A stretch of 36,695 nucleotides of DNA from a virus (IMGVR_UViG_3300009177_000023:1-36695), one strand, 5' to 3'; shown: positions 3,345 to 33,186, numbered from the stretch's first letter. Made by a program: numbers and translations. The notes: generated by a model not told the origin, from the letters alone.

Positions 3345-3358
3345 CGGTCACTGCGACC
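3339..3358 (+). promoter_or_regulatory. Copy D of conserved motif (gATTAACGGTCACTGCGACC), 17 nt upstream of ATG 3376
   Basis: 19/20 identical to the copies at 19131 and 23091. Followed by agaaaaaggaaagaacc-ATG. Confidence 0.7.
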
Positions 3359-5178: not shown

Positions 5179-5312
5179 TCTGTTTTGAAACTCCGCGCCG
5201 GAACGTCCCGCGCGCCGACTGAGAAAGGACGCGCGATCGCGCTGTCGTGGATGCGGCATGCCCTGTGCTGAGGCGGCCGTGCTTGTTACCAACCCCACCC
5301 ACTGGAGGGACC

Positions 5313-6305
5313 GTGTCGTTGGTTTCCGAGGCGGGCATTCGGGCCGCCATCGCCCAACTGGAGGCGATGCTGCCCGAGCGGTCCTGCACCTTCCGTGAGC
5401 TGTGGACCGACTACGTAGCAAGCCTGCCGGCTGAGGCGGGATGGGTTCCAGACGTCGTGTCGCTGATGAAAAAGCCACTGGCGGCCTTCGGTGACGTCAA
5501 GGTTGTCGAGCTGCGACAGTCGAATTGGGCGGCCTACCGCAACGGCCTGGGGCGCGAGCTGTCGCCCACGACGCGCAACCTGGCCCTTCGTCGCACCAAG
5601 GCCGTCGTGCGCTGGGGCGTGGCCGAGGGCAGGGCTTGTGAGACAGCGTTTTTGAAGCTCAAACAGGAGCCGGCCAGGGGCAAGCGGCGGACCGAGATCG
5701 CCGAAGAGGATGACGCCCGTGTCGCGGATGCGTTGCCGCTGGAGGTGAGCGTCCTGTATCGGGTGATGGCGGGCAGCGGGTGCCGGATCGGCGAGGTTCG
5801 AAACCTGCGCTGGGATCAAGTCGACTTCGGGTCGAACACCATCGCCCTGGCCTGGGACGAGAACAAAGGGCGCAAGGCGGCGGTGATAACCTTCACCGCC
5901 GACGCGGCCAACGCCCTGAAGCTGATGCCGCGCGAATCCGTCTACGTGTTCCCGTCGAAGCGCACCGGCCGCCCGCTGGGACATGGGCACTTCTGGTCCC
6001 ATCTCCGCACCGCCTTCGACAAACTGGGCCTGAAGGCGGCGCCGGGGGACGGGAACGTCCACCCACACGACACGCGGCACTCGGTGGCCACGCGGCTCGG
6101 CCGCCGGGGGGTCAGCTTGACCGATATTCAAGGCGTACTCCGCCACGCGAACATCAGTCAGACGGCGCTCTACATCGTGACCAGGGCCGAGGAAATTGCG
6201 GCGGCGGCGCGGCTGCTGGAGGGTCCTCGGCATGGTCCGCACCGCGCCGCGGGGTCGGCGAAGGTGGGACCCGCCGCTCCAAAAGCAAGGGCCGCCCGAA
6301 AGTAA
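5313..6305 (+). CDS. int: Tyrosine recombinase / phage integrase
   Basis: GTG 5313 is preceded by a GGAGGG Shine-Dalgarno. Catalytic signature: GCRIGEVRNLRW (Arg), HPHDTRHSVATRL (H-x-x-R) and LRHANISQTALYI (His...Tyr). Confidence 0.85.
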   Translation: MSLVSEAGIRAAIAQLEAMLPERSCTFRELWTDYVASLPAEAGWVPDVVSLMKKPLAAFGDVKVVELRQSNWAAYRNGLGRELSPTTRNLALRRTKAVVRWGVAEGRACETAFLKLKQEPARGKRRTEIAEEDDARVADALPLEVSVLYRVMAGSGCRIGEVRNLRWDQVDFGSNTIALAWDENKGRKAAVITFTADAANALKLMPRESVYVFPSKRTGRPLGHGHFWSHLRTAFDKLGLKAAPGDGNVHPHDTRHSVATRLGRRGVSLTDIQGVLRHANISQTALYIVTRAEEIAAAARLLEGPRHGPHRAAGSAKVGPAAPKARAARK

Positions 6306-10226: not shown

Positions 10227-10522
10227 ACCAGCGAACGTTCGACGCCGTCGACAACGCACAGGCCAAAGCCCCCGGTGACCTCGACTACCTAGACGTGGCG
10301 CTGATTGAGCTGGATGACGAGCGGCTCCGCTTGGAGGCCCTGTTCCAGCAAACGCACGGTGCGCACTCTAGCTGGGTGGCGGAGGCGGAAAAGCTCCGGA
10401 AGGAACGCGACCTCCTCCGTGGGGTCATCGCCGAAATTCGCGGATGGGCGACCAGTCGCATGACGACCGACAACCCGGGGCCGGCGGAATGGTTACTGGA
10501 AATCACCGCGGTGCTCAAGTGA
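10223..10522 (+). CDS. Hypothetical helical protein (99 aa)
   Basis: GTGA overlap at 10223. In frame within track ORF 10169..10522. Confidence 0.45.
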   Translation: MNQRTFDAVDNAQAKAPGDLDYLDVALIELDDERLRLEALFQQTHGAHSSWVAEAEKLRKERDLLRGVIAEIRGWATSRMTTDNPGPAEWLLEITAVLK

Positions 10523-10965
10523 CCGTCGAGGACTTGCAGCTACTCGGCCCCCGCCAGCGCCAGGTGATGGAGCTGCGCCTGGCCGGCCTCGGGCAGCGTG
10601 AAATCGCCGGCAAGCTCGGCCTCACCGCCAACAACGTGGCTCACCTGGAATACCTCGTGCGCCAGCGCCTGAGCTCGCGTGACGTCCCCCGCCGGCCCTA
10701 CGGCTGGCAAAGCCTCTGCCGCCGTGGCCACCAGAAGACACCGGGGCAGAAGTGCGTCACATGCTGCGCGGCTGCCAACGAGAGCCGACGACAGAAGGGG
10801 TTCGCACGTGCGGCAGCCAGGGAGGCCGCAGAGGCCGCCGCTGAGTCCCCCGAGGCCGCCCGGACCCGCATCGCCTGGGAAGTGTCCACCGGCAAGCGCT
10901 GTGGTCACCAGCTGTTCCGCGGCCCCTGCTGCCTGCTGCGCCCCTGCGCGGACCACGGCCGATGA
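10519..10965 (+). CDS. Sigma-70 region-4 / LuxR(GerE)-type HTH regulator with Cys-rich C-terminus
   Basis: GTGA overlap at 10519. LGPRQRQVMELRLAGLGQREIAGKLGLTANNVAHLEYLVRQRL fits the pattern. The C-terminus contains CRRGH...CVTCC...CGH...CC...C. Confidence 0.6.
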   Translation: MTVEDLQLLGPRQRQVMELRLAGLGQREIAGKLGLTANNVAHLEYLVRQRLSSRDVPRRPYGWQSLCRRGHQKTPGQKCVTCCAAANESRRQKGFARAAAREAAEAAAESPEAARTRIAWEVSTGKRCGHQLFRGPCCLLRPCADHGR

Positions 10966-11173: not shown

Positions 11174-12061
11174 GTGAACTGCCCACGGTGCGGAGAGGAG
11201 ACGGCTGTGTCGAAGTCCATGCGCTTCGATGACACCGTAATTCGACAGCGAAAGTGCGTCTGTGGCTTCACTGGGCGGTCGGATGAGAACTGGGCACAGT
11301 CTATTAGTGGCCAGGAACGCCATCGCCCTGGCCAGCAGCCGCCACCAATGGCCAGGAAACAACCCCTCGTGGCCGCCAATGGCCGCGGGGGGGTAGGGGG
11401 GGTTCTGTCCGGGGTTCGATCTGGGTCTGATCCGGGTCTCAATCCGGACCCCTCTCAGCAATCCGGATCAGGAGCGCACGCGATCCCACAGGCGCCCTTC
11501 GTGCCGCCCCTCCCCCCGGTCCGAATCGATACCTTCGCAGCGGCGAACTCGGCGCACTTCGAGCGGGTCTACGCCGCCTACCCGCGCAAGGACGCCAAGA
11601 GGCGCGCAGGGGAAGCGTTCTGGCTTCTGGCGGCCACGTTCCCCGGCGGCGAGCCTGCGCTTGCCGACGCAATCCTGGAGGCCCTCCCCGCAATGCTGAA
11701 GCGCCACCCGTACAACGGGCCGAACGCGACGCGGCCGTTCCTCGACAAGATCCTCGCCGAGCGCCGGTGGGAGGACCCCGAGAGCGCCCCCGACGCGCCG
11801 ACGAGGGCGGACACCCGATGCAACCTCCACCGCCAGGCCGGCACCTTTCGCCAGCTCCCTCGGGGTGGACCGGTCACCGGCTGCCCGACCTGCAAAGAAA
11901 ACTCAGCTGCCCGAGGGACCCGCGAAGGCGAACCGACAGCCCTCGCGCCACCCCCGTTCAAACCGCCACCCGAATGGACCCCCGAGCAACGGGCCGAAGC
12001 CGAGGCCTTGCGCAAGGAAGCCACCCCAACCGCTCGCGCAGCAGCCGGAGGTGCGACATGA
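11174..12061 (+). CDS. Zn-ribbon protein with a YPRK-motif domain (possible replication or regulatory protein)
   Basis: GTG 11174. N-terminal CPRCG...RQRKCVCG ribbon, a Gly/Ser/Pro-rich linker, then FERVYAAYPRKDAKRRAGEAFW...FLDKILAERRWED, a pattern seen in phage early or replication modules. A further CPTC follows. Confidence 0.45.
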   Translation: MNCPRCGEETAVSKSMRFDDTVIRQRKCVCGFTGRSDENWAQSISGQERHRPGQQPPPMARKQPLVAANGRGGVGGVLSGVRSGSDPGLNPDPSQQSGSGAHAIPQAPFVPPLPPVRIDTFAAANSAHFERVYAAYPRKDAKRRAGEAFWLLAATFPGGEPALADAILEALPAMLKRHPYNGPNATRPFLDKILAERRWEDPESAPDAPTRADTRCNLHRQAGTFRQLPRGGPVTGCPTCKENSAARGTREGEPTALAPPPFKPPPEWTPEQRAEAEALRKEATPTARAAAGGAT

Positions 12062-12285
12062 AGCCCCACCCGAGCGACCCAGCAGCTACGCACGTGGTGC
12101 AATACGAGCCCGCCGAGCTGCCCGGAATCGCCACCATGCATTGCGGGGCGACGGTGGCGATCCAAAGCGATGGGTCGACGGTGCCTGCGGGGTTCGATTT
12201 CTACCTACCCGAGGACCGCGCAAAGGCGACCTGTCTCGCCTGTCCGGTGCTGGCGGGCCTGCGGACGGAGACAGCCGCCAAATGA
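12058..12285 (+). CDS. Hypothetical protein (75 aa)
   Basis: ATGA overlap. In frame within track ORF 11767..12285. Contains CLACP. Confidence 0.45.
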   Translation: MKPHPSDPAATHVVQYEPAELPGIATMHCGATVAIQSDGSTVPAGFDFYLPEDRAKATCLACPVLAGLRTETAAK

Positions 12286-12599
12286 ACCCGCCCCCCGGTC
12301 CCATCGTCGCCATCTACGAGCTAACCCGCGAGTGGACTACCTACCGCTGGCTTTGCGAACCCTGCCTCGCTGCCACCAAGGCCGAGGGCTGGACGGCAAA
12401 GTACCGCGCTGCCGTTGCCCAGGCCTGCGACCGCTGCCCGGCTGTCCCCTCACCCCACCAGAAGCCCGACGGCTCAGTCGCCTACATCCCAACGTCCCGC
12501 ACCTCCCGCCTCCCGACCCGCGCGGAGTGCCCACCGCCCCGCGTGCTCCCGCCGTGGCCCAAGCCCAAGGCGCGCCCCCCGCAGCGAAAGGCAGCATGA
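12282..12599 (+). CDS. Hypothetical Cys- and Pro-rich protein (105 aa)
   Basis: ATGA overlap. Contains CEPC...CDRCP followed by a Pro/Arg-rich tail. Confidence 0.45.
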   Translation: MNPPPGPIVAIYELTREWTTYRWLCEPCLAATKAEGWTAKYRAAVAQACDRCPAVPSPHQKPDGSVAYIPTSRTSRLPTRAECPPPRVLPPWPKPKARPPQRKAA

Positions 12600-12850
12600 G
12601 AGCCGACCAGATCCGAGCGTCCGCCCTGTGGCCATCCGAGGACTGCTCGTCCGAGATGTGCGACGAGGTCTCCGATAAGTGGTGTCCCATCGAGGACGCG
12701 TACCTGTTGCTCAACGAGGCGACAGGCGGACGCGCGACCTTGGTGTACAACCGGCCGGACGCCAACGTGAAGTGGCTCCACACGGTTCCGGTCGAGAAAG
12801 CCCACAAAGCATTCGCCGACGCGCTAATTAACGGTCGCACCGACCGCTAA
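12596..12850 (+). CDS. Hypothetical protein (84 aa)
   Basis: ATGA overlap. The last codons (ALINGRTDR) are encoded by conserved motif copy A. Confidence 0.45.
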   Translation: MRADQIRASALWPSEDCSSEMCDEVSDKWCPIEDAYLLLNEATGGRATLVYNRPDANVKWLHTVPVEKAHKAFADALINGRTDR

Positions 12851-12888
12851 CTGTGATGAGTTGCCAGGCCCGCAACCCGGCGTACAGT
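12826..12888 (+). promoter_or_regulatory. Composite element A: AATTAACGGTCGCACCGACC, 37 nt, then TACAGTCGCC; -35-like TTGCCA at 12861-12866 with a 16-nt spacer
   Basis: Same architecture and spacing as the elements at 19131 and 33124. The -10-like box ends 8 nt before ATG 12897. Confidence 0.65.
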
Positions 12889-12896
12889 CGCCGCAA

Positions 12897-13493
12897 ATGG
12901 GACAACTGCGCAACGGAGACGGCGTCACAATCAACGAAATCACGGTTTCGCATCGAGCGCTGGCCAACAGCCCGCACGATGCGTGTGTGTTCGACCCGCG
13001 GGAGGGTATCCGTGGCGTGAACATTGGGGGCAAGCTCTGGGCTGCCAGCGAGGACACGGTGATTCGCACCGTCAACGTGTCGTTCGATGGGGTGTCGGTC
13101 GAATGCAACACCGAGTTCCTGATGATGTTGAGCGACTTGGAGTTCCGAAAGGAATTCGTCGAGAAGTGCAAGGCGGAACGCGCCGCCGCCGAGGCCGCCG
13201 AGACGGTGCCCCACGTCTGGGAGGCCAGGCCCGAGAAGGACTTCGCCAACCCGGGCTCGCGCAGCTGGCAGTGCTTCAAGTGCCAGGGCTGGGTGTCGGT
13301 GCAGCTGGCCACGGAAGGCGCGGCGGAGCTGGTGGCCGAGATGGACGCCGGCAAGGGGCCGCTCGGGTGCCGTGGCATCCCGCCGCAGCCGGAGGCGCCG
13401 CCGTCCGAGGCCGAGGACCGCGTCACCAGCAACGTCGCCGTGGACGTGAAGAACGCCGCCAAGAAGGCGAAGCGAAAGGGCAAGGCGTCTTGA
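12897..13493 (+). CDS. Hypothetical protein, first gene of the packaging module (small-terminase role possible but unsupported)
   Basis: ATG 12897 (MGQLRNGDG...) lies in frame within track ORF 12861..13493. Contains CFKCQG and a Lys-rich C-terminus. Confidence 0.5.
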   Translation: MGQLRNGDGVTINEITVSHRALANSPHDACVFDPREGIRGVNIGGKLWAASEDTVIRTVNVSFDGVSVECNTEFLMMLSDLEFRKEFVEKCKAERAAAEAAETVPHVWEARPEKDFANPGSRSWQCFKCQGWVSVQLATEGAAELVAEMDAGKGPLGCRGIPPQPEAPPSEAEDRVTSNVAVDVKNAAKKAKRKGKAS

Positions 13494-13702
13494 GGCAGAC
13501 CGCCACCCTGTCCAACGGCATTGGGTACGTGATTTACCTGGGGGCCGATCCCGTCTTGTACGAGGACGGCAACCAGGTCGACGCGTTCGACCTCTGCACA
13601 GTGCCTGCGCGCGAGGCCGGTGCGTTCCTGCGGAGGCTGGCCAACGAGCGGGCCCAGCGCCGTGTTGCCGGGGCCGTGCTGACCTGGGAGACGCACCCGT
13701 AG
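13490..13702 (+). CDS. Hypothetical protein (70 aa); TTG start uncertain
   Basis: TTGA overlap at 13490. The coding-like tail of track ORF 12983..13702. Confidence 0.35.
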   Translation: MRQTATLSNGIGYVIYLGADPVLYEDGNQVDAFDLCTVPAREAGAFLRRLANERAQRRVAGAVLTWETHP

Positions 13703-14115
13703 TGATCCGTCCGATGGCAGAGGACGAGCGGACCTTCGTGCGCGAGACGTGCGCCAAGGTCCGTTGGCCTCACGAGTACAGCGCCCAGCGCGGACGACAG
13801 TGGCCTTCCGTGCCCTGGTCGCAGTGGCTCGCCGACCACGGGGCCGCGATTGACCAGTGGCTCACCCGCGGTGAGTGCCTGGTGTACGCGGAGCGCGGCG
13901 TCGTCCTGGCCTTCCTGGTGAGCACGGGGCACACGCTCCGCTGCCTGTACGTCAAGCGGGAGTTCCGCGGCAACAGGTTCGGCCTGGCGCTGCTGAACGC
14001 GCGGTGGCCTGGGCTCGTCGAAGTGTCGGTGTACCGGCCCACGCCGAGCTTCCTGCGGTGGGCGTCGCTGCACGGCCTGGCCTGGCGACACGAGGAAGAC
14101 AGGCGGGCCGCGTGA
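13702..14115 (+). CDS. GNAT-family N-acetyltransferase-like protein
   Basis: LRCLYVKREFRGNRFGLALL matches the GNAT motif A (acetyl-CoA pocket) pattern. GTG start as in the ORF track. Confidence 0.5.
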   Translation: MIRPMAEDERTFVRETCAKVRWPHEYSAQRGRQWPSVPWSQWLADHGAAIDQWLTRGECLVYAERGVVLAFLVSTGHTLRCLYVKREFRGNRFGLALLNARWPGLVEVSVYRPTPSFLRWASLHGLAWRHEEDRRAA

Positions 14116-15611
14116 GCCTCGCTGCCCTGGCCGACGAGCTGGTCAGCTACGAGCCAACGTTGCCGCGCTGGAGCCTCAAGGCTTTCTGTGGGGACCACGC
14201 GAAGCAATGGGAGTTCGCCACGTCGCCCAGCATGCGGCGTCACCTCCAGTGTGCTCGCCAGTCCGGCAAGAGCTGGATCGTTGACGGCCTAGTCGCCGAC
14301 CGCGCGCAGCTCACGCCCAACTCCCTGCACTTCGTCCTCGGCCTGAACGGCGTGGCCGTCCGTATGAACAACTGGGTTCCCATCTGGAAGCGCACCCTCG
14401 ACAAGTACCGCGTCGAGCGCCGCGACAACCAGCAGATGATGCTCAGCGAGTTCCCCAACGGGGCCCGTGTGATCTTCACCGGCACGGACGACTTGCGCCA
14501 CGTTCGCAACTTCCTCGGCAACCGGCTGCCCAAGGGCTCCACGTTCGTCATCGACGAATCGCAGGACCAGCCGGAAGACACCATGCGGTACCTGCTGGAC
14601 CAGGTCCTGGTGCCGATGATGACGCCGGACACGCTGCTGATCGAGGCGGGCGTGCATCCCGACATGCCGGCGGGGCGCTTCTACCGCGACGCCTCCGACG
14701 CGAGCTGGGACCACTTCGGCTGGGGGCGCTTCGACAACCCGCACACCCCCGAGGCCCGCACCACGCTGGCCAACCACCTGCGCGACCACCAGTTGACAGA
14801 GGCCGATCTCGAGTTCGACCCCGAGCACCCGCCCGAGGGCGGCAAGCTGAGTATCGTCCTCCAGATTCTCCGCGACTGGTTCAACCGCGGCGTCTACGAC
14901 CCGAGCGCCCGGACCTACTGGTACCGCGAGAGCGTCAACGCGTACGACCCGGTCACCCCGGCCTGGGCGACGTCCTTCGTCAGCCCGCCGGGGTTCGGCC
15001 CGGTGCGCTTCGCGGAGCCGTGGCCCGGCGTCGACACGTTCGCGGTGGCCATCGACCCAGGCGGCTCGGACCCGTTCGGCTTGCAGGTCATCGGGTGGGG
15101 CAGGACGCACCGGCGTATCCAGCACCTGGTTGACTGGGTGGCCCCCCGTGGCGCGAAGCTGTCTTGGGGCGATGTCATGCGCACCCTGGGCGTGCTGGTG
15201 GCCCGGCGCTACCCGACGGTCCTGTGGCGCTACGACACCACGTCTGACACCGAGCTGGACACGTTCGGCAACGAGTACGGCGTGCCCGTCATCCGTGCAG
15301 CCAAGAAGGCCGACCGCGACGGGCAGATCCGACGCAACAACGACCTCTTGTCTGACGGCACGCTGGCCGTCATGCGCAACAGCAACCTCGCCACCGACTA
15401 CATCAGCGCGCAGCTCGTTGACGGTGCCTGGGGTGCCTATCACCCGACGGCCTCAGAGTGCGTTCGCTACGCCGTCGGTGACTTCTGGGAGACGCGCCCC
15501 GCGCCCGTTCCCCCGCCGCGCGCCATGGACCCCTTGGACCGCGAGGCCGCTCGAATGGCCGAACAACTCAAACGTGGCGGCCGACGGTTCCCCGGCCGAG
15601 GTGACCGGTAA
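14112..15611 (+). CDS. terL: Terminase large subunit
   Basis: GTGA overlap at 14112. Walker A CARQSGKS, Walker B STFVIDESQ, and a C-terminal RNaseH-like nuclease region FAVAIDPGGSDPFG. Lies directly upstream of the portal gene. Confidence 0.85.
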   Translation: MSLAALADELVSYEPTLPRWSLKAFCGDHAKQWEFATSPSMRRHLQCARQSGKSWIVDGLVADRAQLTPNSLHFVLGLNGVAVRMNNWVPIWKRTLDKYRVERRDNQQMMLSEFPNGARVIFTGTDDLRHVRNFLGNRLPKGSTFVIDESQDQPEDTMRYLLDQVLVPMMTPDTLLIEAGVHPDMPAGRFYRDASDASWDHFGWGRFDNPHTPEARTTLANHLRDHQLTEADLEFDPEHPPEGGKLSIVLQILRDWFNRGVYDPSARTYWYRESVNAYDPVTPAWATSFVSPPGFGPVRFAEPWPGVDTFAVAIDPGGSDPFGLQVIGWGRTHRRIQHLVDWVAPRGAKLSWGDVMRTLGVLVARRYPTVLWRYDTTSDTELDTFGNEYGVPVIRAAKKADRDGQIRRNNDLLSDGTLAVMRNSNLATDYISAQLVDGAWGAYHPTASECVRYAVGDFWETRPAPVPPPRAMDPLDREAARMAEQLKRGGRRFPGRGDR

Positions 15612-19293: not shown

Positions 19294-20583
19294 ATGTCTC
19301 AAGGTTCTACGCCCGGCGCGACGATCACGACGCTTGCCGATGCTCTGATGCTCAACTACGACCTGCCCTTTCGAGGCAAGGTCGGCTGGTCCAAGGGTGC
19401 CCTTGGCGCAATGATCAAGAAGGTTCGGTGGTCGGGCCTCAAGCCCGTCATTCCGATCCGCAACGCCAACAGCCCGGCGGTCTCCAACGACTTCGCGACG
19501 GCTCAGAACCGCGCCAAGACTTCGACGGGCATCACGAAGGTCTATCAGTTCCTTCCGCAGTGGTACAAGAAGTTCGGCGTCGCGCAGATTGACTCCCTGC
19601 TGATTGCAGCGGCGAGCGATTCTGCCGGCGCGGTGTACGACGAGCTGTGCACCCAGATCGACGGCATCATGAACGGGACCACGCATCAGTTCTCGACTGA
19701 CGTGTACCGCAACGGGTTCGGATGCATCGGTCAGATCGACGCGACCACCACCATCGCGTCCACGCGGCTCATTCTGAAGGAGCCGGAAGACTCGGTCCTG
19801 TTCATCGACGGCATGACCCTGATTGCCGCTGTCGACGATCACACCTCGGCCGCGCGCAACGCTGGCGCGACCATGGAGGTCGTTGGCGTCGAGGACTACG
19901 AGAAGGGTTACATCACGATGACCCAGAACCTGTCGACGGCCATTGCGGCCATCGCGGTTGGCGACTTCGTGTTCCCCGAAGGCAACCGCGGCGTCGGTGC
20001 CACCCCGGCGCCCACGGCGCTGAACGGCCTCGACGCGTGGTTCCCGGCCACCGTCCCCACCACCACGGACGTCGCCTCGGGCGTCGACCGTTCCAAGTCC
20101 GCGCTGTTGCGCGGAACCATCCTGGACTTCACCTCTTCGACGAAGAACAAGGAAGACCAGTGCATCGACGCCATCACGGCGAGTGCCCGCTACGGCGGGA
20201 ACCCGGCGAACATGGTGTATTTCACCAACAACACGAACTACAAGGAAATCCTGTTGTTCGGGACGGCCAAGTACCGGCCGGACACCACGAAGGGGCCATA
20301 CGGCATCTCCTTCCAGGGCATCAAGATCCAGACCGACAACGGCGAGGTGAAGGTGCAGCCGGACCGGTACTGCCCGGTCAAGCGGTCCTACCTGCTCGAC
20401 ATGTCCACCGTGAAGTTCTACGGGTGCGGATCGGCCGAGGTGCCTCGGTTCATCGACGACGATGGCGTAGGGAAGATCCTGCGCATGACGGACGCGGCTG
20501 CTGTTGAGAGCCGCGTCGGGTACTACGGGACCATCGGGTGCAACAACCCCATCGTCAACGTGGTCAACGTCCACAAGACGTAA
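19294..20583 (+). CDS. Major capsid protein
   Basis: 429 aa, follows the scaffold gene, has its own strong promoter-like element and a downstream hairpin, and shows very high GC3. Assigned from position and composition. Confidence 0.7.
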   Translation: MSQGSTPGATITTLADALMLNYDLPFRGKVGWSKGALGAMIKKVRWSGLKPVIPIRNANSPAVSNDFATAQNRAKTSTGITKVYQFLPQWYKKFGVAQIDSLLIAAASDSAGAVYDELCTQIDGIMNGTTHQFSTDVYRNGFGCIGQIDATTTIASTRLILKEPEDSVLFIDGMTLIAAVDDHTSAARNAGATMEVVGVEDYEKGYITMTQNLSTAIAAIAVGDFVFPEGNRGVGATPAPTALNGLDAWFPATVPTTTDVASGVDRSKSALLRGTILDFTSSTKNKEDQCIDAITASARYGGNPANMVYFTNNTNYKEILLFGTAKYRPDTTKGPYGISFQGIKIQTDNGEVKVQPDRYCPVKRSYLLDMSTVKFYGCGSAEVPRFIDDDGVGKILRMTDAAAVESRVGYYGTIGCNNPIVNVVNVHKT

Positions 20584-23090: not shown

Positions 23091-23110
23091 AATTAACGGT
23101 CACAACGACC
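23091..23110 (+). promoter_or_regulatory. Copy E of conserved motif (AATTAACGGTCACAACGACC), 16 nt upstream of ATG 23127
   Basis: Same position relative to the Shine-Dalgarno and ATG as copy D (ggaaaaggggtctcaa-ATG). Confidence 0.7.
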
Positions 23111-23126: not shown

Positions 23127-26100
23127 ATGCGCAACGTTTCGACAGTGGTGGCTTTCGTGTTGTTGGTCGGCTGTGGGATTGAGAAGGACGACGACGTGTC
23201 ACTCCAGAAAATACCGGTGTCCTGGCCCCTGACGGGGGGGCTCGACACCAAGAAATCGCCGCTGGCGATTCAGCCGGGGTCGCACCTGGTGCTGGACGAC
23301 GTTGTTCAGGAGCGGCTCAACGAGTGGCGGCACCGCAACGGATTCACGCAGGTTACGGCGGACACGATGCCCGAGGCGGCGCCGTATTTTGTCGGCGCGC
23401 TCGGTGACTCGGGGATGTTCGAGGCCGGGAAGTCGGGACTGGAGCCTTACTCGCCGTCGTCCGCCGCCAGATGGGCGCCTTCGATCAATGCCGTGCCCAT
23501 CCAGCCTCAGCACCGGAGCCGCAAGCCGATAGTCGCGAACGACCTGACCGCAGGCATGGGCTTCGCGCGCGTCGGCAACATCCTGGCGATCGGGGCGTCC
23601 GTGACGGGCAGTACGAGCTCGGAAACGCGGGTCACCACCTACGACGCCTTCTCTGGCGCCGCGGTTGACATTTCGGGCCCGCTCACTGGCGTGACGCTGT
23701 TTCGCGGGGCTGCCACGGCCTCATTCGCGGTGATGTTCGCGATCGATCCGGTCTCTGGCCTGCGAGCATTCACCGTCAATTCAACTGGGCAAGTCACGTC
23801 GACGACGACAGTGGCGACCGCCTTCACGAGGCTCGATGCCTACTGGTACGGCGGCGCGACAATCACGGTGGTCGCCGCGACCGCTGCCGGTGCGGTGTCG
23901 TTCTTGGAGTTCAACCCATCGACCCCGGCATTCACCACGAACGTGGTACTTGCGGGGGTCCTGGGCAATAGCGCCCTGGCATTGCTGGCCGATCCGCTGG
24001 CCACGGGGACCAGGTACGTGGGGACGAGCGGAACAACGCCCACCACACGCGTAATTCGGTGCAGCTCTGCCGGTGCCATCCTGACGAACGACCAGGTGGA
24101 GGCGGTGGCGTCGACCAAGATCGCAGGGATCGGAACCAACGCCGGCAACGCCGCCGACTGGTCTGTGATCTACCAGACGACCGCGCCCAACCTGCGCGTC
24201 AACCAGAAGGTCAACAATGCGATCGGGTCGCCACTCCCGTTCAAGGGCTCACTGTCATGGGGAGCCGGCGGCACGCTCGATTCCCAGGCGTGGGCGGACT
24301 CCAGCATCGACTCGACGGCCTTTTTCCTGCTGATCGGCCTGCACTCCCAGAACCCCGACGACCCTCAAGATTCATGGGCAGAGTTCTATATCCCGCTGCC
24401 AGGCGGGCAGAGCGCGCCCACGGTAGTGTCGACGCCGTCGTCTCTTTCTGCGGGCCCGTCGCTGTCCGCGCTGTACCAGGTCGTCAGGACGTCGGCTTTG
24501 CATTTCTCGACACTGCTGCCGGTGCAGGTGGTCTACGAGGACAACGCGGGCGTCATCGTCCGGCACTACTCGCTGGACCTGTTCGAACAGACCTACCTGA
24601 CCAGCGCCGACGACGCGGTGACGCTCACTCAGAAGCCGCTGAAGTACAAACAGACGTCGTTCGTTCCTGGCGGCCAGATCTCATATTTCGACGAGAGCGC
24701 CATGAAGCGCCTGGGGACGGCGAGCCCGCCCCGGATACCGACCGGGGTGGGCAGCACGGCGGCCGGGGCGCTGACGCTGCTGGCTCAGTATGGCTACAAG
24801 GTTGTCATCGAGACGATCGACAGCGACGGGAACATCTGGCGCTCACCTCCGACGCCGGGCCTCCTGGTGACGCTGGCCGGAACCCAGAACACGATCACCG
24901 TCACCTACTCGTCGTGGTCCACGTCCGACTACACGTCAGCCACCATCCGCGTGGCCATCTACCGGACAGCAGCAAACGGGTCGTCGTATCGGCGGATCTA
25001 CTCGACGCTCGCGGGGCCGGGGCTGGACGTGGTCTATGTCGATCTGCTCGCCGACACCGCCATCGTCGACGGCGAGGTGCTCTACGTCCAGGGCGAGCTC
25101 GAGACGGCTATCACCCCGCCTGCGCACGTCATCTGGTTTCACGATGACCGCTTGTGGGCCGCGAACCGCGAGTACCCCACCGAGGTTTGGTACACCAAGA
25201 ACCTTCGCCCGGGGCGACAGCCGGAGTTCACGAACGAGGGCATCGTTGACCTCGATGACGAGTTCGGGGACATCACCAACGGCGCCAGCCTCGACACGCA
25301 GAACGTTGTGTTCAAGAAGAACGCCATTTACTTCGGGTCGGGCGACGGTTTCACCGACTCGGGCAGCGGCACCAACTACCGCTTCGATCGCATCTCCAGC
25401 GACCAGGGCGCGCTTCCCGGCTCTCCCGTGGTCAACACGGGTAACGTGCTCTACTTCGTTGGAGAACGCGGGATTCACACCGTCAACAAGCAAGGCGTGG
25501 TCGACTTCACCGGATCCCCCGTTGACCAGTGGATCAACCAGCCTTTGGTGTCCACGCGGGAAACGGTGCTAGACGGCTGCTTTGTCTCGACGAAGAACGA
25601 CGTTGTCTTTCTGACCACCAATTACCTGTTGATCCACAACCTCACCTTCAACTACTGGCGGCGGGTGACGGGCCTGGCAGGGATGCGCCGGTGCCTGGTG
25701 GTCAACGGACAGCTGGTGTTGTTCAAGAACGACGGGACGATGTGGCGCGAGGGCGACCACACCGTGTTGACCGACGGATCGAGCGCGATGCCCGAGGGAA
25801 TCATTCGCTCCCCGTGGATGCGCCCCACCCAGGGAAGCGGCGGACCTGGTACCGGCTCGACGGCGACCGCCGGCCAGCAGGGCATGCGCATCTACCGAGG
25901 CCGCGTCACGTACACGCGGACCGCTGGGGGCTCAACGGTTGCCCTTCGGGGGCGCATCTACCGCAACAACGACGACGCCGACCTGGAGGAGTTCACCAGC
26001 AGCGGGATTGCCGCGTCGAAGCTCTCGGGCACCGGCGAGATGGTTCCGAAGGTCTCGAAGTGCACTTCGTTCTCACTCGCCCTGGTGATTCCAGCGGGCG

Positions 26101-26198: not shown

Positions 26199-28010
26199 AT
26201 GGCGGCAGTTCCCGAGGGCTACACGCCACGCGTCGACGCCAACGGCGTCGTGTCCGGCTACTACGACCCCAACGGGGTGCTGGTCGGCAACATCTCGGGC
26301 GCGGTCAAGAACCCGGACGGGTCCATCACCTATTCGAACGGTGGCGGATCGTTCACGACCTATCCTGGTGGCACGTCGAAGGCGACGCAGGCCACTGGCG
26401 GTTTGACGACCACCTACGGCGCCGACGGCACCCGGACCACCACCGACGCGAGCGGCGCCGCGGCGTCGGCCGACGCGATCCAGGCGGCAAACAACGCGAA
26501 CGCCGGCCAGCTTGGCGCGGGCGGGCTGCTAGGACTGGGCAGCAATCCGGTCACGGGGCTCATCCACGCGGCGGCGGCCATCCCCAAGGCCGTCAAGACC
26601 GAGCTTACCGGCGACGACGGCAGCGCCGCTGCCGCCGACAAGGCCGCCATTGACACCGCCGCCCACAACCTCGGGCAGTGGGATCCCAACGCCAAGAACA
26701 CCTTCGACTTCGGCAATCAGCAGGGCGTTGCGACGCCCGTTGCGAATGCGCCCACGGTTACGGCGCCGCCACCGGGACAGTCGCCCGCCTCGCTCGACTT
26801 CAACGCGGGACTGGTGACGCCGGGGCAGATCACCTCAACGCCCAACGTGGGCTATGCCCCCGTGGTCTCCGCTCCCCAGCTCGGGGCGGCTCCCCAGATC
26901 AGCGCAGGCAGCGCGAGCGGTTCCGGCGTCACTGCCACCAACGTTGCCGTGCAGCGAGCGGACAACGTTGGCGACATTGCCGCGGGCGGCGTCGGTCGCG
27001 ACGCGCAGCTCGACGCCCTGGGCGGGCTCAAGGATGCGGCGGAGGGCAAGACGCCCAGCGCGGCGGAATGGCTGATGCGAAAGGGCATCGACGAGAACGT
27101 TGGCGCGGCCTACGGTCTCGCGGCGTCGTTGCAGGGACGCAACCCCGGCATCGCCCTGCGTACGGGCGCCATCACCGCCAAGGACGCAATCGCGAAGAGC
27201 GCGGCCGACATGGCTGCCCTGCGCGCCACCGAGATCGCGAAGGCGCGCGAGGCCTATGCCACCCTCGGCACCAGCATCGCGGCCCAGGACCTGACTGCAA
27301 TGCAGTCGAACCAGTCCAAGGACCTGACGCTCTCGGTGACCAACCTCCAGGAGCAAATCAAGGTCCTCCAGGGCAATCAGCAGGCCCAGCTGCAAGCGGG
27401 CATGGCCACCGCGGCGAACGCCACCGCAGCGTCGATCGCAACGCTCCAGGCGCAGACCAACGTCGCTGTCGCCAACCTCCAGACGTCGACGGCGCGGGAC
27501 ATCGCGAACCAGACCGCCCAGCTCGACGCCTCGAAGGCCAACGCCGCCAACGAGATCGCGGTCAACATCGCGAACGCCAACAACCAAATGACCGCGTTGA
27601 CGGCGAACCTCGCCGCGCAGACCGCCGCGAACGACAGAAACGCCGCCAGCGAGACGGCCAAGGCGATCGCGCAACTCGACTCCCAGACCAAGATGCTGAT
27701 GCAGCAGCAGGACCAGCTCTACGACGCGGCCAAGACGAACGCCGCGAACCAGGTCAGCGTCAACAACACCAACGCCACGAACGCCACCAACGTCAGTATC
27801 AGCAACGCGGGCCTTGAGGAGCGGAAACAGGCCGACATGGCCGCCGCGGACGCGAAGCTCAAGGAGCTGGGACTACAGTCGCTGATCGCCCAGCTGAACG
27901 CGTCCATCTCTGTCGCCAAGACGGACCAGGAACGGCAGGCGGCCGAAGATGCGTTCTGGGGATCGTTGGCGGGGACCGCGGGAAAGCTTGCGACGGGGAA
28001 GCCGGGATGA
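26199..28010 (+). CDS. Internal virion / ejection-like protein (603 aa), Ala/Asn/Gln-rich coiled-coil C-terminal half
   Basis: Gly/Thr-rich N-terminus (GxxTYxxG repeats), then a long low-complexity helical region. Position after the nozzle gene. Confidence 0.5.
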   Translation: MAAVPEGYTPRVDANGVVSGYYDPNGVLVGNISGAVKNPDGSITYSNGGGSFTTYPGGTSKATQATGGLTTTYGADGTRTTTDASGAAASADAIQAANNANAGQLGAGGLLGLGSNPVTGLIHAAAAIPKAVKTELTGDDGSAAAADKAAIDTAAHNLGQWDPNAKNTFDFGNQQGVATPVANAPTVTAPPPGQSPASLDFNAGLVTPGQITSTPNVGYAPVVSAPQLGAAPQISAGSASGSGVTATNVAVQRADNVGDIAAGGVGRDAQLDALGGLKDAAEGKTPSAAEWLMRKGIDENVGAAYGLAASLQGRNPGIALRTGAITAKDAIAKSAADMAALRATEIAKAREAYATLGTSIAAQDLTAMQSNQSKDLTLSVTNLQEQIKVLQGNQQAQLQAGMATAANATAASIATLQAQTNVAVANLQTSTARDIANQTAQLDASKANAANEIAVNIANANNQMTALTANLAAQTAANDRNAASETAKAIAQLDSQTKMLMQQQDQLYDAAKTNAANQVSVNNTNATNATNVSISNAGLEERKQADMAAADAKLKELGLQSLIAQLNASISVAKTDQERQAAEDAFWGSLAGTAGKLATGKPG

Positions 28011-28012
28011 TG

Positions 28013-28351
28013 CTACTTGCGAACGCCGTAATTGACGTTGACGCGAGGGCGCGCCTGACAGGCCGCAAGCTCCGTCTCAAGCTGCGCCACCTTGGCAGCG
28101 GGATCGACTGGCGGCGCCGCCTGCGCGGCACGCTCGGTCGCCAGGTCGCGGAGAAACTTGTCCGGATCGAAGTCCTTGGAGCCCGCCGTTTCAAGGGCCA
28201 TGCGGAGTCGGGTGTACTCGGCGACGTCGTGGACGTCGGTCACGATCCTGGAAATCGCGCGATAGGCCGGCACGCCCACCGCGATTACCCCCGCCAACGT
28301 CACGACGAGGGTCACTTGTCGAACACGCCTCTCCCACGTCTCAAGGTCCAT
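28013..28351 (-). CDS. Antisense moron: 112-aa single-pass membrane protein
   Basis: The minus-strand ATG at 28351 gives MDLETWERRVRQ-VTLVVTLAGVIAVGVPAYRAI (TM), then a helical C-terminus. High GC3 on the minus strand. The overlapping + ORF 28007..28414 is Arg-rich and looks non-coding. Confidence 0.65.
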   Translation of the reverse strand: MDLETWERRVRQVTLVVTLAGVIAVGVPAYRAISRIVTDVHDVAEYTRLRMALETAGSKDFDPDKFLRDLATERAAQAAPPVDPAAKVAQLETELAACQARPRVNVNYGVRK

Positions 28352-28358
28352 GTAACGA

Positions 28359-28386
28359 ATGATAGCCTCGGCCAATTCGCGGTCAA
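28359..28386 (-). promoter_or_regulatory. Sigma70-like promoter TTGACC-N16-TATCAT for the antisense gene; the -10 box ends 7 nt before the ATG (leaderless candidate)
   Basis: On the minus strand: ttgacc (28386-28381), gcgaattggccgaggc, tatcat (28364-28359), tcgttac, then ATG (28351). Confidence 0.55.
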
Positions 28387-28406
28387 GCCGCCCGGTAAGG
28401 TGACCC

Positions 28407-29927
28407 GTGGCTGAGCTTCCCGGCGCCGGGGTGGCAGTGAACTTCCCCGCGGCTCCCGAGTGGGAAAAGCGGGTGACGGCTCCGTCTGTCACCGACACGA
28501 CAAAGGCCCTGTCGCCTGTCCAGGTCGCGGTAGAGGGTCAATCCCTCGCCCAGGCCGAGGAGGAAAAGGCGGCCGTCGACCAGAAGACGGGCCTCGAAAC
28601 CGACAAGGCGACGATCGAGGCCCAGGGCGCCGCGGCCAAGGAAGCGCAAACCGCGGCGACCATCGGCGAGAAGGACCGCGTCGACGCAGCCGAGACGGTC
28701 AAGATCGCGAAGCGCGCGGACGAGCTGCGCGCCGCGAACGAGGCGATCCGGGCAACGCCCGCGCCTGCGCTGTTCGCGGACCGCAAAGGCTGGGAAAAGG
28801 CCAAGCTCGCGATGGGCTTCGCGCTCGCGGGCCTGGGCGACGCCATCAACGCGAAGGCCAGCGCCGTTCTCGGGCGCGCGGCTGGGCCCTCGGCGGTGAC
28901 GGACATCATCAACATGGACCTGGAGCGCCAGCGCGAGAACATCAAGAAGCTGACCGACAGCCAGATCATGGCCAAAGAGGGCGTCAAGGACGCGATCGCC
29001 GCCCGCGAGCTCGCGCTGACCAAGGTCGACCTGAAGGGCGCGGCCCTGTTCAACCTGGCGAGCCAGCACGTTGAGACACTCCTGAAGGCTAAGGGCATGG
29101 ATGCGCCCGCGATCGCTGGGAACGAGGCCAAGCTCGCGCTCGATCGGGCCGAGGTGGAGAGCAAGAAGCGCGCAGTGGCAGGCCTCGCCAGCGAGCACAC
29201 GCGCGCTGGCGCCAAGGTTGAGGTGACGACGCGCGCGGCGTCCGAGTCCGACAAGGGTGCGCCGAGCGCCCGCGCGGCGCCTGTTCGCGGGCCGGACGGG
29301 ACCATCACCTACGCGCCAACCGGCGAGGCCGAGAAGCTGAACGAAGGCGTCGCCGCGGCGCTGCGGATCGACAAGATCTTGCACGAGCGCCAGCAGCTCA
29401 TCCGCGAACACGGCGAGCGGGTTATCAACCCGCACTCCCCCGAGGGTATGCGAATGAAGCAGCTCGCCGTCGAGTCCGGCGAGGCCCTGCGGCAGTTCGA
29501 CCAGATCAACAACAGCGACGAGGGCCAGAAATTGGCCGCCAAGATCGCGGGAGGGTCCGGCGTCGGCGTTGACCTGAACCCGGCGGCGTCCGTCGACTAC
29601 CTCGCCGAGTTGCGCAGGGGCGTCGCGCGGACCATTCGCGACCGCATCAAGGTCGGCTCTGGTCCCGCCGAGCAGATGCGCCCGGGCGCTCCCGCCGTAC
29701 CGGCTGCGCCCACTGCCGCGCCCGCCGCTGCGCCTGCCCCAACAGCAGCGCCCACGCCGCCGATCCCGTCGACGGCGCCCATGGTTCCTCCGAAGCCCGC
29801 GGCGCTGCCACGGCGCGCACCGGGGCCGCTGAGCCCATCCGACCGTGAGGCGCTCATGTGGGCGAAGGGGCCGGGTCGGGGGACGCCGAAGGCCGAAGAG
29901 ATCTTGAAGGCGCTGGGGGTGAAGTGA
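28407..29927 (+). CDS. Internal virion / ejection-like protein (506 aa)
   Basis: GTG 28407 with an AAGGTG Shine-Dalgarno. Ala/Glu/Lys-rich helical protein with a Pro/Ala-rich C-terminal region. Confidence 0.5.
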   Translation: MAELPGAGVAVNFPAAPEWEKRVTAPSVTDTTKALSPVQVAVEGQSLAQAEEEKAAVDQKTGLETDKATIEAQGAAAKEAQTAATIGEKDRVDAAETVKIAKRADELRAANEAIRATPAPALFADRKGWEKAKLAMGFALAGLGDAINAKASAVLGRAAGPSAVTDIINMDLERQRENIKKLTDSQIMAKEGVKDAIAARELALTKVDLKGAALFNLASQHVETLLKAKGMDAPAIAGNEAKLALDRAEVESKKRAVAGLASEHTRAGAKVEVTTRAASESDKGAPSARAAPVRGPDGTITYAPTGEAEKLNEGVAAALRIDKILHERQQLIREHGERVINPHSPEGMRMKQLAVESGEALRQFDQINNSDEGQKLAAKIAGGSGVGVDLNPAASVDYLAELRRGVARTIRDRIKVGSGPAEQMRPGAPAVPAAPTAAPAAAPAPTAAPTPPIPSTAPMVPPKPAALPRRAPGPLSPSDREALMWAKGPGRGTPKAEEILKALGVK

Positions 29928-31846
29928 TGGCGTTCGATCCTGATGCGTACCTGTCGAACCTGGCCGTCGAGCGCGCCGCCGGAACGCCTGCGGCAGTCGG
30001 CACGCCGCCCGGCATCGCCGCGCCCGACACCACGCGAAACAGCGCGCAGCTGCCCGACTACGCGCACGATCCCGTGCCGCCCGAGAAGGCTCCCGCTGTG
30101 CGCGAAGCAATCACGCGCGCCACCGCCACCGAAGGGTTCGACGGTCTCCCGCCCGACGCCCAGCGCAAGGCCATCATCGACGCCGTCCACGGGGTGACCC
30201 GCGAGCAGGCCCCTGCGGCGCCTGCCGAGCCCGGATTCCTTGAGTCCCTGGTCAACAGCGCCGGCCGCGCTGTGCCGCTCGGACACCAGTCCGGTGCGCT
30301 GATGGAGACCATCGCCCACGGCGGCAAATTCACCGACAATTACAACGCCCTCGAGGCCCGCACGGACGCAGGGGAAGCGGCGCACCCGGTGGCGGGCATC
30401 GCCGGGCGCACGGCTGGCGGCCTGGCAACGATGGCGGCCACCGGCGGCCTGGGTGCCGCCGTTGGTGCCCCCGCGGCAGCGGCGCCGACGATCGCTCGCG
30501 CTGCTGCGCCGCTGACCGCCAACGCTGTGGCCGGCGGCGTACAGGGTGCAGCCGATGCCGCGTCCGAGGGCGCCGATGCGGAGGAGACGTTTCAACGCGG
30601 CCTTGCCGGCGCGACGGTCGGCGCTGGGATTGCCACGGCGATCCCAGCTGCATCGAAGGCGCTAGGGAAGCTGTTTGCCGGCGCGCTGAAGCGGTCCGAC
30701 GAGCGCATTCTGTCGGACGCGGGCGACGTGGCCACGAAGAAGATGCGCGACAAGATCAACGAGAAGGCCGACGACGTCATTGACCTGGTCCGTCGCACCC
30801 CTGGCCTGCGCGAAACCCTCACGACCCCTTCGCACTTCGTTGCGGCGGCCGAGGAACACCTGTCGGCCAACGGAACGCGCCTGAACAAGATTTACGACGC
30901 GGCCGACAAGATCAACGGGATGGTCGACGGCGCGCGCCTCGCCTCCGTCGTGACCGAGGCGCAGCAGCGCGCACAGGGACGCCTCGCGACCAAGGAGGTG
31001 GCGGCGGCCCTGCAACCGACCGTCGACAAGCTCGCGGGCGAGTCGGGGCGCGGGATAAGCGGGGCCGAGATTCGCGAGGAGATCACCCGCTTGCAAGGTG
31101 TCGCGTTCGACCGCTCACCTGGAGCGGCGCCTACCCCCGCGCGCGCCGCCGCCGGGCTGGCTGCGGGCAAGCTGAAGGATCTCCTGGAGGAGCACGTCCA
31201 CGCGGCGAGCGAGACCGTGCGTAGCGCCGCGGGGCATGCCGCCGGGACAACTCCGGGGCTTGTGCCCGCGTCGTCTGGCCTCGGGCCCGTCGGCGGCGCG
31301 ACCGGAGGTCTGTCGCCCGCCCAGCTGCACCAGATGGCAGACGAACTCAACGTGGCCACCGTCAAGTCGCTCAACTCCGATCAGACCGTCCTCATGCGCC
31401 TCAAGAAGGCGGCCGAGTACCGCGCCAGCGTCGCGCCGAACCAGCACGGCACCCGGCTGTCCAAGGTGGCCCATGCCGTTGTCACTCACGGCGCGCATGT
31501 TGGTGGCGTCGGTGAGATCGTCCATGGTCTCGCCTCGGGCGACGGGGCGGCGGTGGCCAAGGGCGTTGCCCTTGCCGTGGCGCCGCATGTGATCCCGCCG
31601 GTGGCCAGGGGCATCGACGAGGGGATCGCCTCCACGGCGCGCGCGCTGGGTGGTACGCGCCCCGCCGCAACGGGACTCGTCCAGAAGCTGTCGGCGACGA
31701 ACGATGCGGGAGGGAAGACCGCCGTTCTCATGGACCACGTCTTTGGCGGGCGCAAGGACGACGCGAAGCCTGCCGCTGCCCCGTACACGTTCGGCGGCGA
31801 CAGTGCCGAAGGTGGCGGCGGCTACAAGTTTGGCGGCGAGCCATGA
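29927..31846 (+). CDS. Internal virion / ejection-like protein (639 aa)
   Basis: TGATG overlap at 29927 (MAFDPDAYLSN...). Gly/Ala-rich hydrophobic segment (GGLATMAATGGLGAAVGAPAAAAP...) suggests a membrane-active core protein. Confidence 0.5.
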   Translation: MAFDPDAYLSNLAVERAAGTPAAVGTPPGIAAPDTTRNSAQLPDYAHDPVPPEKAPAVREAITRATATEGFDGLPPDAQRKAIIDAVHGVTREQAPAAPAEPGFLESLVNSAGRAVPLGHQSGALMETIAHGGKFTDNYNALEARTDAGEAAHPVAGIAGRTAGGLATMAATGGLGAAVGAPAAAAPTIARAAAPLTANAVAGGVQGAADAASEGADAEETFQRGLAGATVGAGIATAIPAASKALGKLFAGALKRSDERILSDAGDVATKKMRDKINEKADDVIDLVRRTPGLRETLTTPSHFVAAAEEHLSANGTRLNKIYDAADKINGMVDGARLASVVTEAQQRAQGRLATKEVAAALQPTVDKLAGESGRGISGAEIREEITRLQGVAFDRSPGAAPTPARAAAGLAAGKLKDLLEEHVHAASETVRSAAGHAAGTTPGLVPASSGLGPVGGATGGLSPAQLHQMADELNVATVKSLNSDQTVLMRLKKAAEYRASVAPNQHGTRLSKVAHAVVTHGAHVGGVGEIVHGLASGDGAAVAKGVALAVAPHVIPPVARGIDEGIASTARALGGTRPAATGLVQKLSATNDAGGKTAVLMDHVFGGRKDDAKPAAAPYTFGGDSAEGGGGYKFGGEP

Positions 31847-32393: not shown

Positions 32394-33125
32394 ATGGACT
32401 TCACTCGATCAACTTGGGAAATGGTCATGGGGTCGCTGACCCCCATGACAGGGGCGATTTCCGGCACCACGCCGAAGCTGTCGACCTGGATCAAGGCCGT
32501 CGGGCTGGAGTCGTTCACGGCCACCCTTGCGACAACCGGCACCGTCAACGGAACCTGGACCGTCCAAGGGTCCAACGCCGACGACGCCACCAAGCCCGCC
32601 GAGCTGATCGTGGAGCTTGGCACGTACCCGTCACAGCCGACCTACCCGACGGGCGTGGCGTCGAGCGGCGACGTCGTACAGCCGACGTACGGGTTCCGGT
32701 ACATCCGGTTCACGTTCACCCCGAGCGCGGGCGCGGGCAATGCGACCGTGACGTTCAAGGGGAAGATGACCGGCGCGCCGATGGACATGGCACAGCTGCA
32801 CCACGGGAGTATCCACCTGCTCGTCGCCGCGGCTGACACGCTGGCCGGGCAGTTCGCGCTGGAAGGCTCCAACAACTGGTCGGGCATCCTCCAGGGCCAG
32901 AAGGCCAAGGGCCAGGCCTTCGCGGACGGGAACTGGACGCCCTACCTGCCATCGCCCGCCATTGCCGTCCTCGTTGCGTCGACGGGGCAAGACCGAATGG
33001 TCGACCTGGGGATCACCACCGACGGCGCAACCGGCATCATTCGTTGCGGCGCGGTTCGGTTGAACTTCACTTGGACGGCGGGATTCGGCAGCCCGAGCGC
33101 ATACGGAGCCTACAAGGCAGCTTAA
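32394..33125 (+). CDS. Hypothetical beta-sandwich virion protein (243 aa)
   Basis: Two similar halves (WTVQGSN...FRYIRFTFTP / FALEGSNNW...GAVRLNFTW). The stop lies inside motif copy C. Confidence 0.5.
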   Translation: MDFTRSTWEMVMGSLTPMTGAISGTTPKLSTWIKAVGLESFTATLATTGTVNGTWTVQGSNADDATKPAELIVELGTYPSQPTYPTGVASSGDVVQPTYGFRYIRFTFTPSAGAGNATVTFKGKMTGAPMDMAQLHHGSIHLLVAAADTLAGQFALEGSNNWSGILQGQKAKGQAFADGNWTPYLPSPAIAVLVASTGQDRMVDLGITTDGATGIIRCGAVRLNFTWTAGFGSPSAYGAYKAA

Positions 33126-33186
33126 TTAACGGTCGCGCCAACCTGTAATTGGCGCGAATTGACGGGGCGATCTTTGCCCGTACAGT
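33124..33186 (+). promoter_or_regulatory. Composite element C: AATTAACGGTCGCGCCAACC, 37 nt, then TACAGTCGGC; -35 TTGACG at 33159-33164 with a 16-nt spacer; includes an 8-bp hairpin cgcgccaa/ttggcgcg
   Basis: Spacing identical to elements A and B. The hairpin at 33134-33156 could terminate the upstream operon. Confidence 0.7.

Follow-up and report, generated by a model that had tools for sequence, protein, structure and literature searches.

A single minus-strand gene, almost certainly a real one, lies within the virion module of an uncultured phage, and the comparison with related genomes indicates that it is an accessory gene whose cargo is exchangeable. The window in which it was studied, a stretch of 36,695 bp with ~67% GC, is a virus record of IMG/VR that is complete and carries direct terminal repeats. 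In the mechanism that we propose, a near-consensus sigma-70 promoter would fire on the minus strand and yield a leaderless transcript, which would be translated into a 112-aa protein with a one-helix membrane anchor, a helical domain and a conserved tail containing a Cys. The cassette would have entered the virion module between two large genes which lie end to end in cassette-free relatives, its cargo being either of the membrane-anchored type or an unrelated lipoprotein; it would be expressed from the prophage, and its product would act at the cell envelope, where it would most likely block DNA entry by related phages. Taken as one statement, a prophage-expressed envelope moron with exclusion as its most likely role is on balance probable. 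Such a gene would add a sequence-novel family to the few envelope-located, prophage-borne genes that lie next to, and antisense to, the DNA-delivery genes in temperate phages with short tails, if, as its promoter suggests, it is expressed in lysogens; the precedent studied for such genes is P22 sieA.

The phage is temperate and of podovirus size, since a profile scan recognized a tyrosine integrase (5247..6305; phrog_1, 1.5e-38) and the genome measures 36.7 kb. The profile scans also named the large terminase (13875..15611), the major head protein (19294..20583), a Sak4-like protein, a ParB-like protein, a tail-fibre-assembly-like protein and a 1020-aa virion structural protein; in the last of these, a regular-expression scan found a lipobox-like LVGC at residues 13-16 (window 23127-23200). 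Cultured phages gave no match either in blastn or in tblastn searches with the cassette proteins, TerL and the 506-aa protein described below, and two scans of GTDB genomes for a matching prophage found none. The minus-strand gene is flanked by two large plus-strand genes of the virion module. The upstream one (26199..28010) encodes a Q/N/A-rich protein of 603 aa and is convergent with the cassette; the downstream one (28407..29927) encodes 506 aa, is divergent from it and has its own Shine-Dalgarno sequence, AAGGTGA, inside the 55-nt intergenic region that both share. These neighbours had been presented as ejection-protein genes in the preliminary description, which proved to be a positional guess only: neither protein has a family match, and no similarity to P22 gp20, to gp16 or to the PDB was detected. 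As large, low-complexity proteins encoded in the virion module, they are nevertheless compatible with an ejection role.

The minus-strand gene runs from ATG 28351 to the TAG at 28015..28013 (28013..28351, 112 codons plus the stop), and its stop lies 2 nt from that of the convergent 603-aa gene, which ends at 28010. The preliminary description had reported a minus-strand ORF of 112 aa with one hydrophobic helix and this very short distance to the convergent gene, and all of these sequence facts hold. Its statement that the gene is the only one on its strand holds as well, as a codon-usage scan found no other minus-strand ORF above threshold except shadows within better-scoring plus-strand genes. 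The third-position GC content, described as normal and high, is indeed high but not quite normal, being slightly under that of the plus-strand genes (0.80 versus 0.82-0.89). The codon score is 0.21 bit per codon, and the GC content of the cassette equals the genome average, so the composition is not foreign. An automatic gene caller places the start at GTG 28315, which would give a 100-aa product; an invariant Trp6 and the geometry of the promoter favour ATG 28351 instead.

A plus-strand ORF of 135 aa (28007..28414), which the preliminary description does not mention, lies antisense to the gene and in register with it, and the GC content at the codon positions gives no preference for either frame. 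The relatives decide between them. In L001, whose equivalent of the 506-aa protein is 56% identical to that of the window, the same slot holds a minus-strand ORF of 165 aa, and the alignment with it covers 117 aa in the minus frame versus 29 aa in the plus frame. The C-terminus of the L001 protein (LDACQARPRVNINYG) matches that of the window (LAACQARPRVNVNYG), and over the 15 C-terminal codons the differences amount to 7 synonymous and 2 nonsynonymous changes in the minus frame, the plus frame having almost no synonymous ones. A further member, in L008, is an 88-aa protein encoded in this slot and with the same orientation; its flanking genes are 76-87% identical to those of the window, and L010 carries a near-copy of this protein; this last pair shows 16 differences, too few for an informative dN/dS. 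Pairwise comparisons give dN/dS values of 0.12-0.39 for the minus frame, as against >1.4 for the frame that lies antisense and in register, which shows the minus-strand gene to be under purifying selection. The dN/dS values, the synonymous changes and the unequal alignments in relatives argue that the minus-strand gene is real and that the plus-strand ORF is its shadow.

Behind a short N-terminus, the protein has a single transmembrane helix, followed by a helical domain and, at the C-terminus, a conserved tail. The transmembrane segment corresponds to residues 13-33 (28253..28315, minus strand; Kyte-Doolittle 1.89) and carries an invariant P-x-x-R, P28 and R31 being conserved throughout the family alignment. 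The 19 C-terminal codons (28016..28072, minus strand) encode the signature of the family, L-x-A-C-Q-A-R-P-R-V-N-x-N-Y-G..., with an invariant Cys. An AlphaFold2 model of the 112-aa protein (pLDDT 70, pTM 0.29) consists of helices only, one of them extending over residues 3-56, and a fold search with this model returned no match below E 2. We infer from these predictions that a single helix anchors the product in the cytoplasmic membrane; the positive-inside rule gives an ambiguous topology, and the number of transmembrane helices within the family ranges from 1 to 3 (1 in the window, 3 in L001). The only other small protein of the window with a strong hydrophobic helix is a candidate membrane protein of 119 aa encoded in the early region (1010-1369, plus strand), which has its helix at residues 30-48, a charged helical C-terminus and no family match.

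The family is narrow. Searches of Pfam, PHROGs, PADLOC and PDB sequence profiles with the protein and its relatives gave no match. Among 1.84 billion representatives, an exhaustive HMMER search recovered no proteins other than those of the window, L001 and L008, and a profile search of 5.8 billion clusters added the L016 member alone. In about 15 billion predicted proteins, the family thus amounts to five loci and four protein clusters, and these searches found no homologue outside this phage group. It is also fast-evolving and mosaic in its middle part: positions 28078..28348 of the window have no DNA homology to the L010 version of the gene, both ends of which are homologous.

The distribution of the cassette was studied in nine further relatives (of roughly 20), fetched through homologues of the 506-aa protein. 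The slot between the 603-aa and 506-aa genes, hereafter slot A, contains the membrane-protein type in the window, L001, L008 and L010, an unrelated lipoprotein in L011 and L017, and nothing in L002, L012, L013, L014 and L016, where the flanking genes abut or overlap. A second slot, B, lies two genes downstream, after the third large virion gene; it holds the lipoprotein type in L014 and L015 and a distant member of the membrane type in L016 (C-terminus LAACRKSHVTINYR; hhalign probability 84%). Both slots are empty in L012, L013 and L002. In whole-record searches, the complete genomes G000 and G001 proved to carry the membrane type alone and the 99%-complete G002 neither cargo type anywhere, and the two types never co-occur in one genome. 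This distribution shows that the gene is accessory and its cargo exchangeable; the contents of G000, G001 and G002 further indicate that the cassette is dispensable for the lytic cycle and that the cargo types are alternatives rather than partners. The C-terminal ~40-60 residues of the 603-aa protein (window 27800-28010 and its equivalents in L008, L010 and L016) also occur as two unrelated variants, one ending in ...AGTAGK and a longer one in ...NGAPILD. Co-variation of these variants with the cargo type was considered and dropped, as they do not track the cargo of the neighbouring cassette.

The alternative cargo is a minus-strand gene for a protein of ~135 aa (L017:299-712, L011:2022-2435, L014:5775-6176 and L015:3996-4400) with a signal peptide, a lipobox (LLGC, AIGC, MLGC or MAGC) and six conserved Cys. 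Gene callers place its start too far downstream in L011 and L014. Its predicted fold is a seven-strand all-beta domain (pLDDT about 80), for which the best match, a weak one, is p58 of Myxococcus phage Mx8 (E 3e-3, TM-score 0.35), and no family match was found in Pfam, PHROGs or PADLOC. Like the membrane type, it is by its dN/dS under clear purifying selection as a protein, and its signal and Cys pattern are conserved. Among the exclusion proteins of prophages, lipoproteins make up the other frequent format (references in PMC10883804). T5 Llp, phi80/N15 Cor and TP-J34 Ltp resemble this cargo of L017, L011, L014 and L015 in being small secreted lipoproteins, but no sequence match or significant fold match links them to it, and the comparison concerns the sister cargo and not the gene of the window.

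The two cargos share a promoter. In the window, a sigma-70-type promoter (28359..28386, minus strand; 10/12 matches to the consensus) consists of a -35 hexamer TTGACC (28386..28381), a 16-nt spacer and a -10 hexamer TATCAT (28364..28359), which ends 7 nt before ATG 28351 and is not followed by a Shine-Dalgarno sequence or any purine-rich ribosome-binding site. The elements and the spacing given in the preliminary description are confirmed, and so is its claim that this promoter is nearer to the consensus than those with TACAGT, as the plus-strand promoters (TTGACG or TTGCCA, 16 nt, TACAGT) reach 9/12. No other sigma-70 match in the 36.7 kb reaches 10/12, and the minus strand has no further match of any kind; 0.1 matches would be expected from shuffles in the 2-kb region. 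An alignment of the six slot A loci, including those of the L017 and L011 lipoprotein genes, reveals the same arrangement: GCTTGACC-nn-RAATTG, then TAT(C/T)(A/C)T, exactly 7 nt and the ATG, with a spacer of 16 nt in the window versus 18 nt in the other five. The Shine-Dalgarno sequence is absent in 6/6 of these loci, whereas the neighbouring plus-strand genes have one. The block GCTTGACC-nn-RAATTG (28373..28388, minus strand) occurs once in the window and reaches beyond the -35 hexamer, and it may represent an extended promoter or an operator. Between L017 and L010, which carry different cargos, 95.5% DNA identity starts 2 nt into the start codons, and the coding sequences are unrelated. The promoter and ATG module is conserved before unrelated genes, which supports a functional leaderless start; a functional leaderless promoter is very probable, and we infer that the minus-strand gene is transcribed in this form. 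One conserved leaderless promoter would then act as a fixed socket, behind which two unrelated envelope cargos are exchanged with the breakpoint at the start codon. The comparative picture is unusually clean, which puts promoter, leaderless start and accessory status within reach of simple reporter and expression constructs.

The classic precedent for a leaderless start in a lysogen-expressed gene is the lambda cI mRNA, which starts from PRM at the A of the AUG (PMC10491246). That gene encodes a repressor, whereas the product here is a membrane protein, and the leaderless start of the latter is deduced from the fixed 7-nt distance between the -10 hexamer and the ATG and from the missing Shine-Dalgarno sequence. 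Elsewhere in the phage, the packaging-module promoter has its TACAGT 8 nt before an ATG. The regions upstream of slot B (L014:6177-6244, L015:4401-4468 and L016:6004-6055) differ from that of slot A and share CCCTGAAC(G/T)AACGTTC(G/C)GGATTG, which contains the palindrome GAACGTTC; L015 shows TTGAAC, 17 nt, CACCGT, 7 nt and an ATG, possibly a second leaderless arrangement.

The plus-strand module promoters are preceded by a 20-nt motif, AATTAACGGTC(A/G)CnnCGACC, with a GGTCG/CGACC dyad, found at 3339-3358, 12826-12845, 19131-19150, 23091-23110 and 33124-33143. It lies ~15 nt upstream of the -35 hexamer of the TACAGT promoters, an activator-like position (~60 nt upstream of the module promoters). 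A candidate regulator is encoded at 10444..10965, a 173-aa protein that contains a sigma-70 region 4 / LuxR-type helix-turn-helix (Pfam 1.3e-6). The 20-nt motif is absent from the minus-strand promoter, and on this ground the gene would be expressed from the prophage. Alternatively, the conserved AATTG block could serve to keep this promoter repressed in lysogens, which is a point against such expression.

A classic moron ends in a terminator of its own and often has a deviating GC content. The preliminary description called the gene a moron, and much of that label stands: the gene is optional, lies between genes that otherwise abut, has its own conserved promoter and belongs to a temperate phage. 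What is missing is a terminator of its own. Only 2-5 nt separate the cassettes from the convergent stop, no convincing hairpin with a T-run was found within about 350 nt, and the nearest weak hairpins lie ~350 nt downstream, inside the 603-aa gene; the count of terminator-like structures, 5 versus 2.1 ± 1.4 in shuffles, is within about two standard deviations. That the gene is a prophage-expressed moron can be held with fair confidence on these sequence features. A comparison is offered by the moron concept and HK97 gp15 (Juhala/Hendrix; Cumby et al. 2012, cited in PMC10883804 and PMC3594210), a small inner-membrane protein that excludes superinfecting phage at DNA entry. Like such morons, the cassette is an independent unit placed between late genes that are conserved and adjacent, occurs in some relatives only and encodes a small, predicted membrane protein; it differs from them in being antisense to the operon, in the missing terminator, in its GC content, which is not foreign, and in having no PHROG similarity.

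The closest positional counterpart is sieA (superinfection exclusion A) of Salmonella phage P22, whose product blocks the entry of DNA from related phages. In the P22 genome (BK000583), sieA (13336..13830, minus strand) follows immediately after the injection genes 7, 20 and 16, on the opposite strand to them (gene 16 at 11484..13313, plus strand), and has its own promoter (13861..13891). SieA is optional among P22-like phages and exists as several sequence types that are <30% identical (PMC10883804). In both phages, which are temperate and short-tailed, a small gene with its own promoter, for a protein that is located in the membrane or, in the window, predicted to be so, runs opposite to the late operon and is convergent with large internal-virion genes, right after them, with the reservation that the neighbours in the window were not matched to ejection proteins. 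The differences are also clear: SieA has 164 aa and several hydrophobic segments suggested by its sequence, whereas the protein of the window has one helix, and sieA stands at the end of the virion block, whereas the cassette lies between two virion genes and has a predicted leaderless start. The two proteins have no similarity (hhalign probability 0.1%, BLASTP E 0.17), so that the comparison is a working analogy and not an assignment to a family. A temperate phage, a constitutive-looking promoter, two cargos that are both targeted to the envelope and a position matching a known case together suggest exclusion at the envelope. Superinfection exclusion specifically, argued by analogy, is a tentative assignment.

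The same support for expression from the prophage and for a location in the envelope is available to products that do not block DNA entry, such as an abortive-infection effector acting on the membrane, a surface modifier responsible for lysogenic conversion or a host fitness factor. The sequence specifies no activity, as Pfam, PHROGs and PADLOC gave no match, the exchange with a lipoprotein would fit any envelope-directed function, and the gene is fast-evolving with a mosaic middle. Against these functions, the position mirrors that of sieA, no enzyme-like domain is present and the soluble part is small and helical, and a 16-residue copy of a virion-protein segment, discussed below, points more specifically to interference with virion proteins. 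Exclusion and another envelope function are not separable by sequence alone, and we regard the latter as unlikely, if a serious contender.

The copied segment comprises residues 61-76 of the 112-aa protein (FDPDKFLRDLATERAA; 28124..28171, minus strand), in which BLASTP and hhalign recognize the N-terminus of the third large virion protein (639 aa). For the gene of that protein (29927..31846, plus strand), the most probable start is ATG 29927 rather than GTG 29858, the first in frame; this ATG shares 1 nt with the stop before it, an overlap also seen in all relatives. The N-terminus of its product (MAFDPDAYLSNLAVERAA) is conserved in nine relatives, and the template of the copy corresponds to residues 3-18 (29933..29980). 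In BLASTP, residues 61-76 match the window's own virion protein with E 1e-5 and its L014 homologue with E 4e-7; in hhalign, they match the nine-member alignment of the N-terminus with 69% identity (probability 80%, E 1.4e-5). The copy sits within the middle part of the gene that is unique to the window, and in the other members of the family nothing matches it, so that only the window's version has it.

This segment fits an interference with incoming virion proteins, and it may be either a mosaic accident or a membrane-tethered decoy of an ejection-protein peptide. As a decoy, the helix formed by residues 61-76, copying MAFDPDxYLSxLAxERA, would capture the partner of that peptide and stop the DNA-delivery conduit of incoming relatives, a mechanism that we consider improbable. 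If it were true, it would represent superinfection exclusion by molecular mimicry of an ejection protein, coming from a promoter-anchored site that swaps exclusion cargos. A functional copy would offer a handle on how exclusion proteins recognize ejection proteins and on which virion peptide matters; if the copy is not functional, the gene would be an ordinary moron in an uncultured phage.

A role in lysis, which the preliminary description had mentioned as a second possibility, spanin-like or other, is disfavoured. The product could in principle be a holin or the inner-membrane subunit of a type II spanin (N-terminal anchor, coiled coil and conserved Cys), with the lipoprotein type as its outer-membrane partner: Pfam and PHROGs recognized no lysis gene, of an endolysin or holin family, anywhere in the window, the lipoprotein family occupies the same slots, and the architecture is reminiscent of Rz/Rz1, with an N-terminal membrane anchor, a helical extramembrane part and an invariant Cys near the C-terminus. 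Yet the membrane and lipoprotein types would not form a spanin pair, because they never co-occur, G000 and G001 having the membrane type only and G002 neither. In contrast to Rz/Rz1, the two types are alternatives with no embedded or adjacent partner: no lipoprotein is embedded in the gene, the other minus frame being Arg-rich and devoid of a lipobox, none that could be its partner occurs elsewhere in the genome, and the lipoprotein itself has a Cys-rich beta domain of ~115 aa with no C-terminal anchor, unlike o-spanins or unimolecular spanins. The gene also lies outside any lysis cassette, on the opposite strand, behind a near-consensus promoter and with no adjacent endolysin, both slots are empty in L012, L013 and L002, and complete relatives dispense with it. 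For a holin, the transmembrane helix and a charged tail are present, but the number of helices varies from 1 to 3 and no endolysin stands beside the gene. A lysis protein is thus very unlikely.

Also very unlikely is the idea that the antisense RNA is the main product and the protein secondary. Running into the 3' end of the 603-aa gene, the transcript would damp leaky late expression in lysogens, and both the lack of a terminator within the 2-5 nt that separate the cassettes from the convergent gene and the stronger conservation of the promoter than of the cargo would suit this function. Purifying selection on both cargo families, with their conserved signal or anchor and Cys patterns, argues for proteins as the products, and some relatives manage without any cassette.

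That the real gene would be the plus-strand ORF, translationally coupled to its neighbours by an ATGA overlap with the upstream stop and by its own stop overlapping the downstream GTG, with the minus-strand ORF as a GC-rich shadow, has next to no credibility: GC by codon position is not decisive and the frame is open in nine of nine cassettes, but the Arg-rich product shows no sequence conservation, the codon score of the frame falls short of the threshold, the minus frames encode either a transmembrane protein or a genuine lipoprotein whose domain is modelled with confidence, and the C-terminal synonymous pattern and the dN/dS described above already contradict it. The openness of this frame is an observation in its own right. 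In all nine cassettes, the plus frame in register with the minus-strand gene starts within 3 nt of the upstream stop and ends 0-7 nt past the downstream start (115 nt in L016). Its translation could span the antisense insert and so maintain the coupling of the late genes, or it could be a mere GC-rich shadow frame; the codons TTA, CTA and TCA do not occur among about 1100 cassette codons, versus 0.56% in the phage genes.
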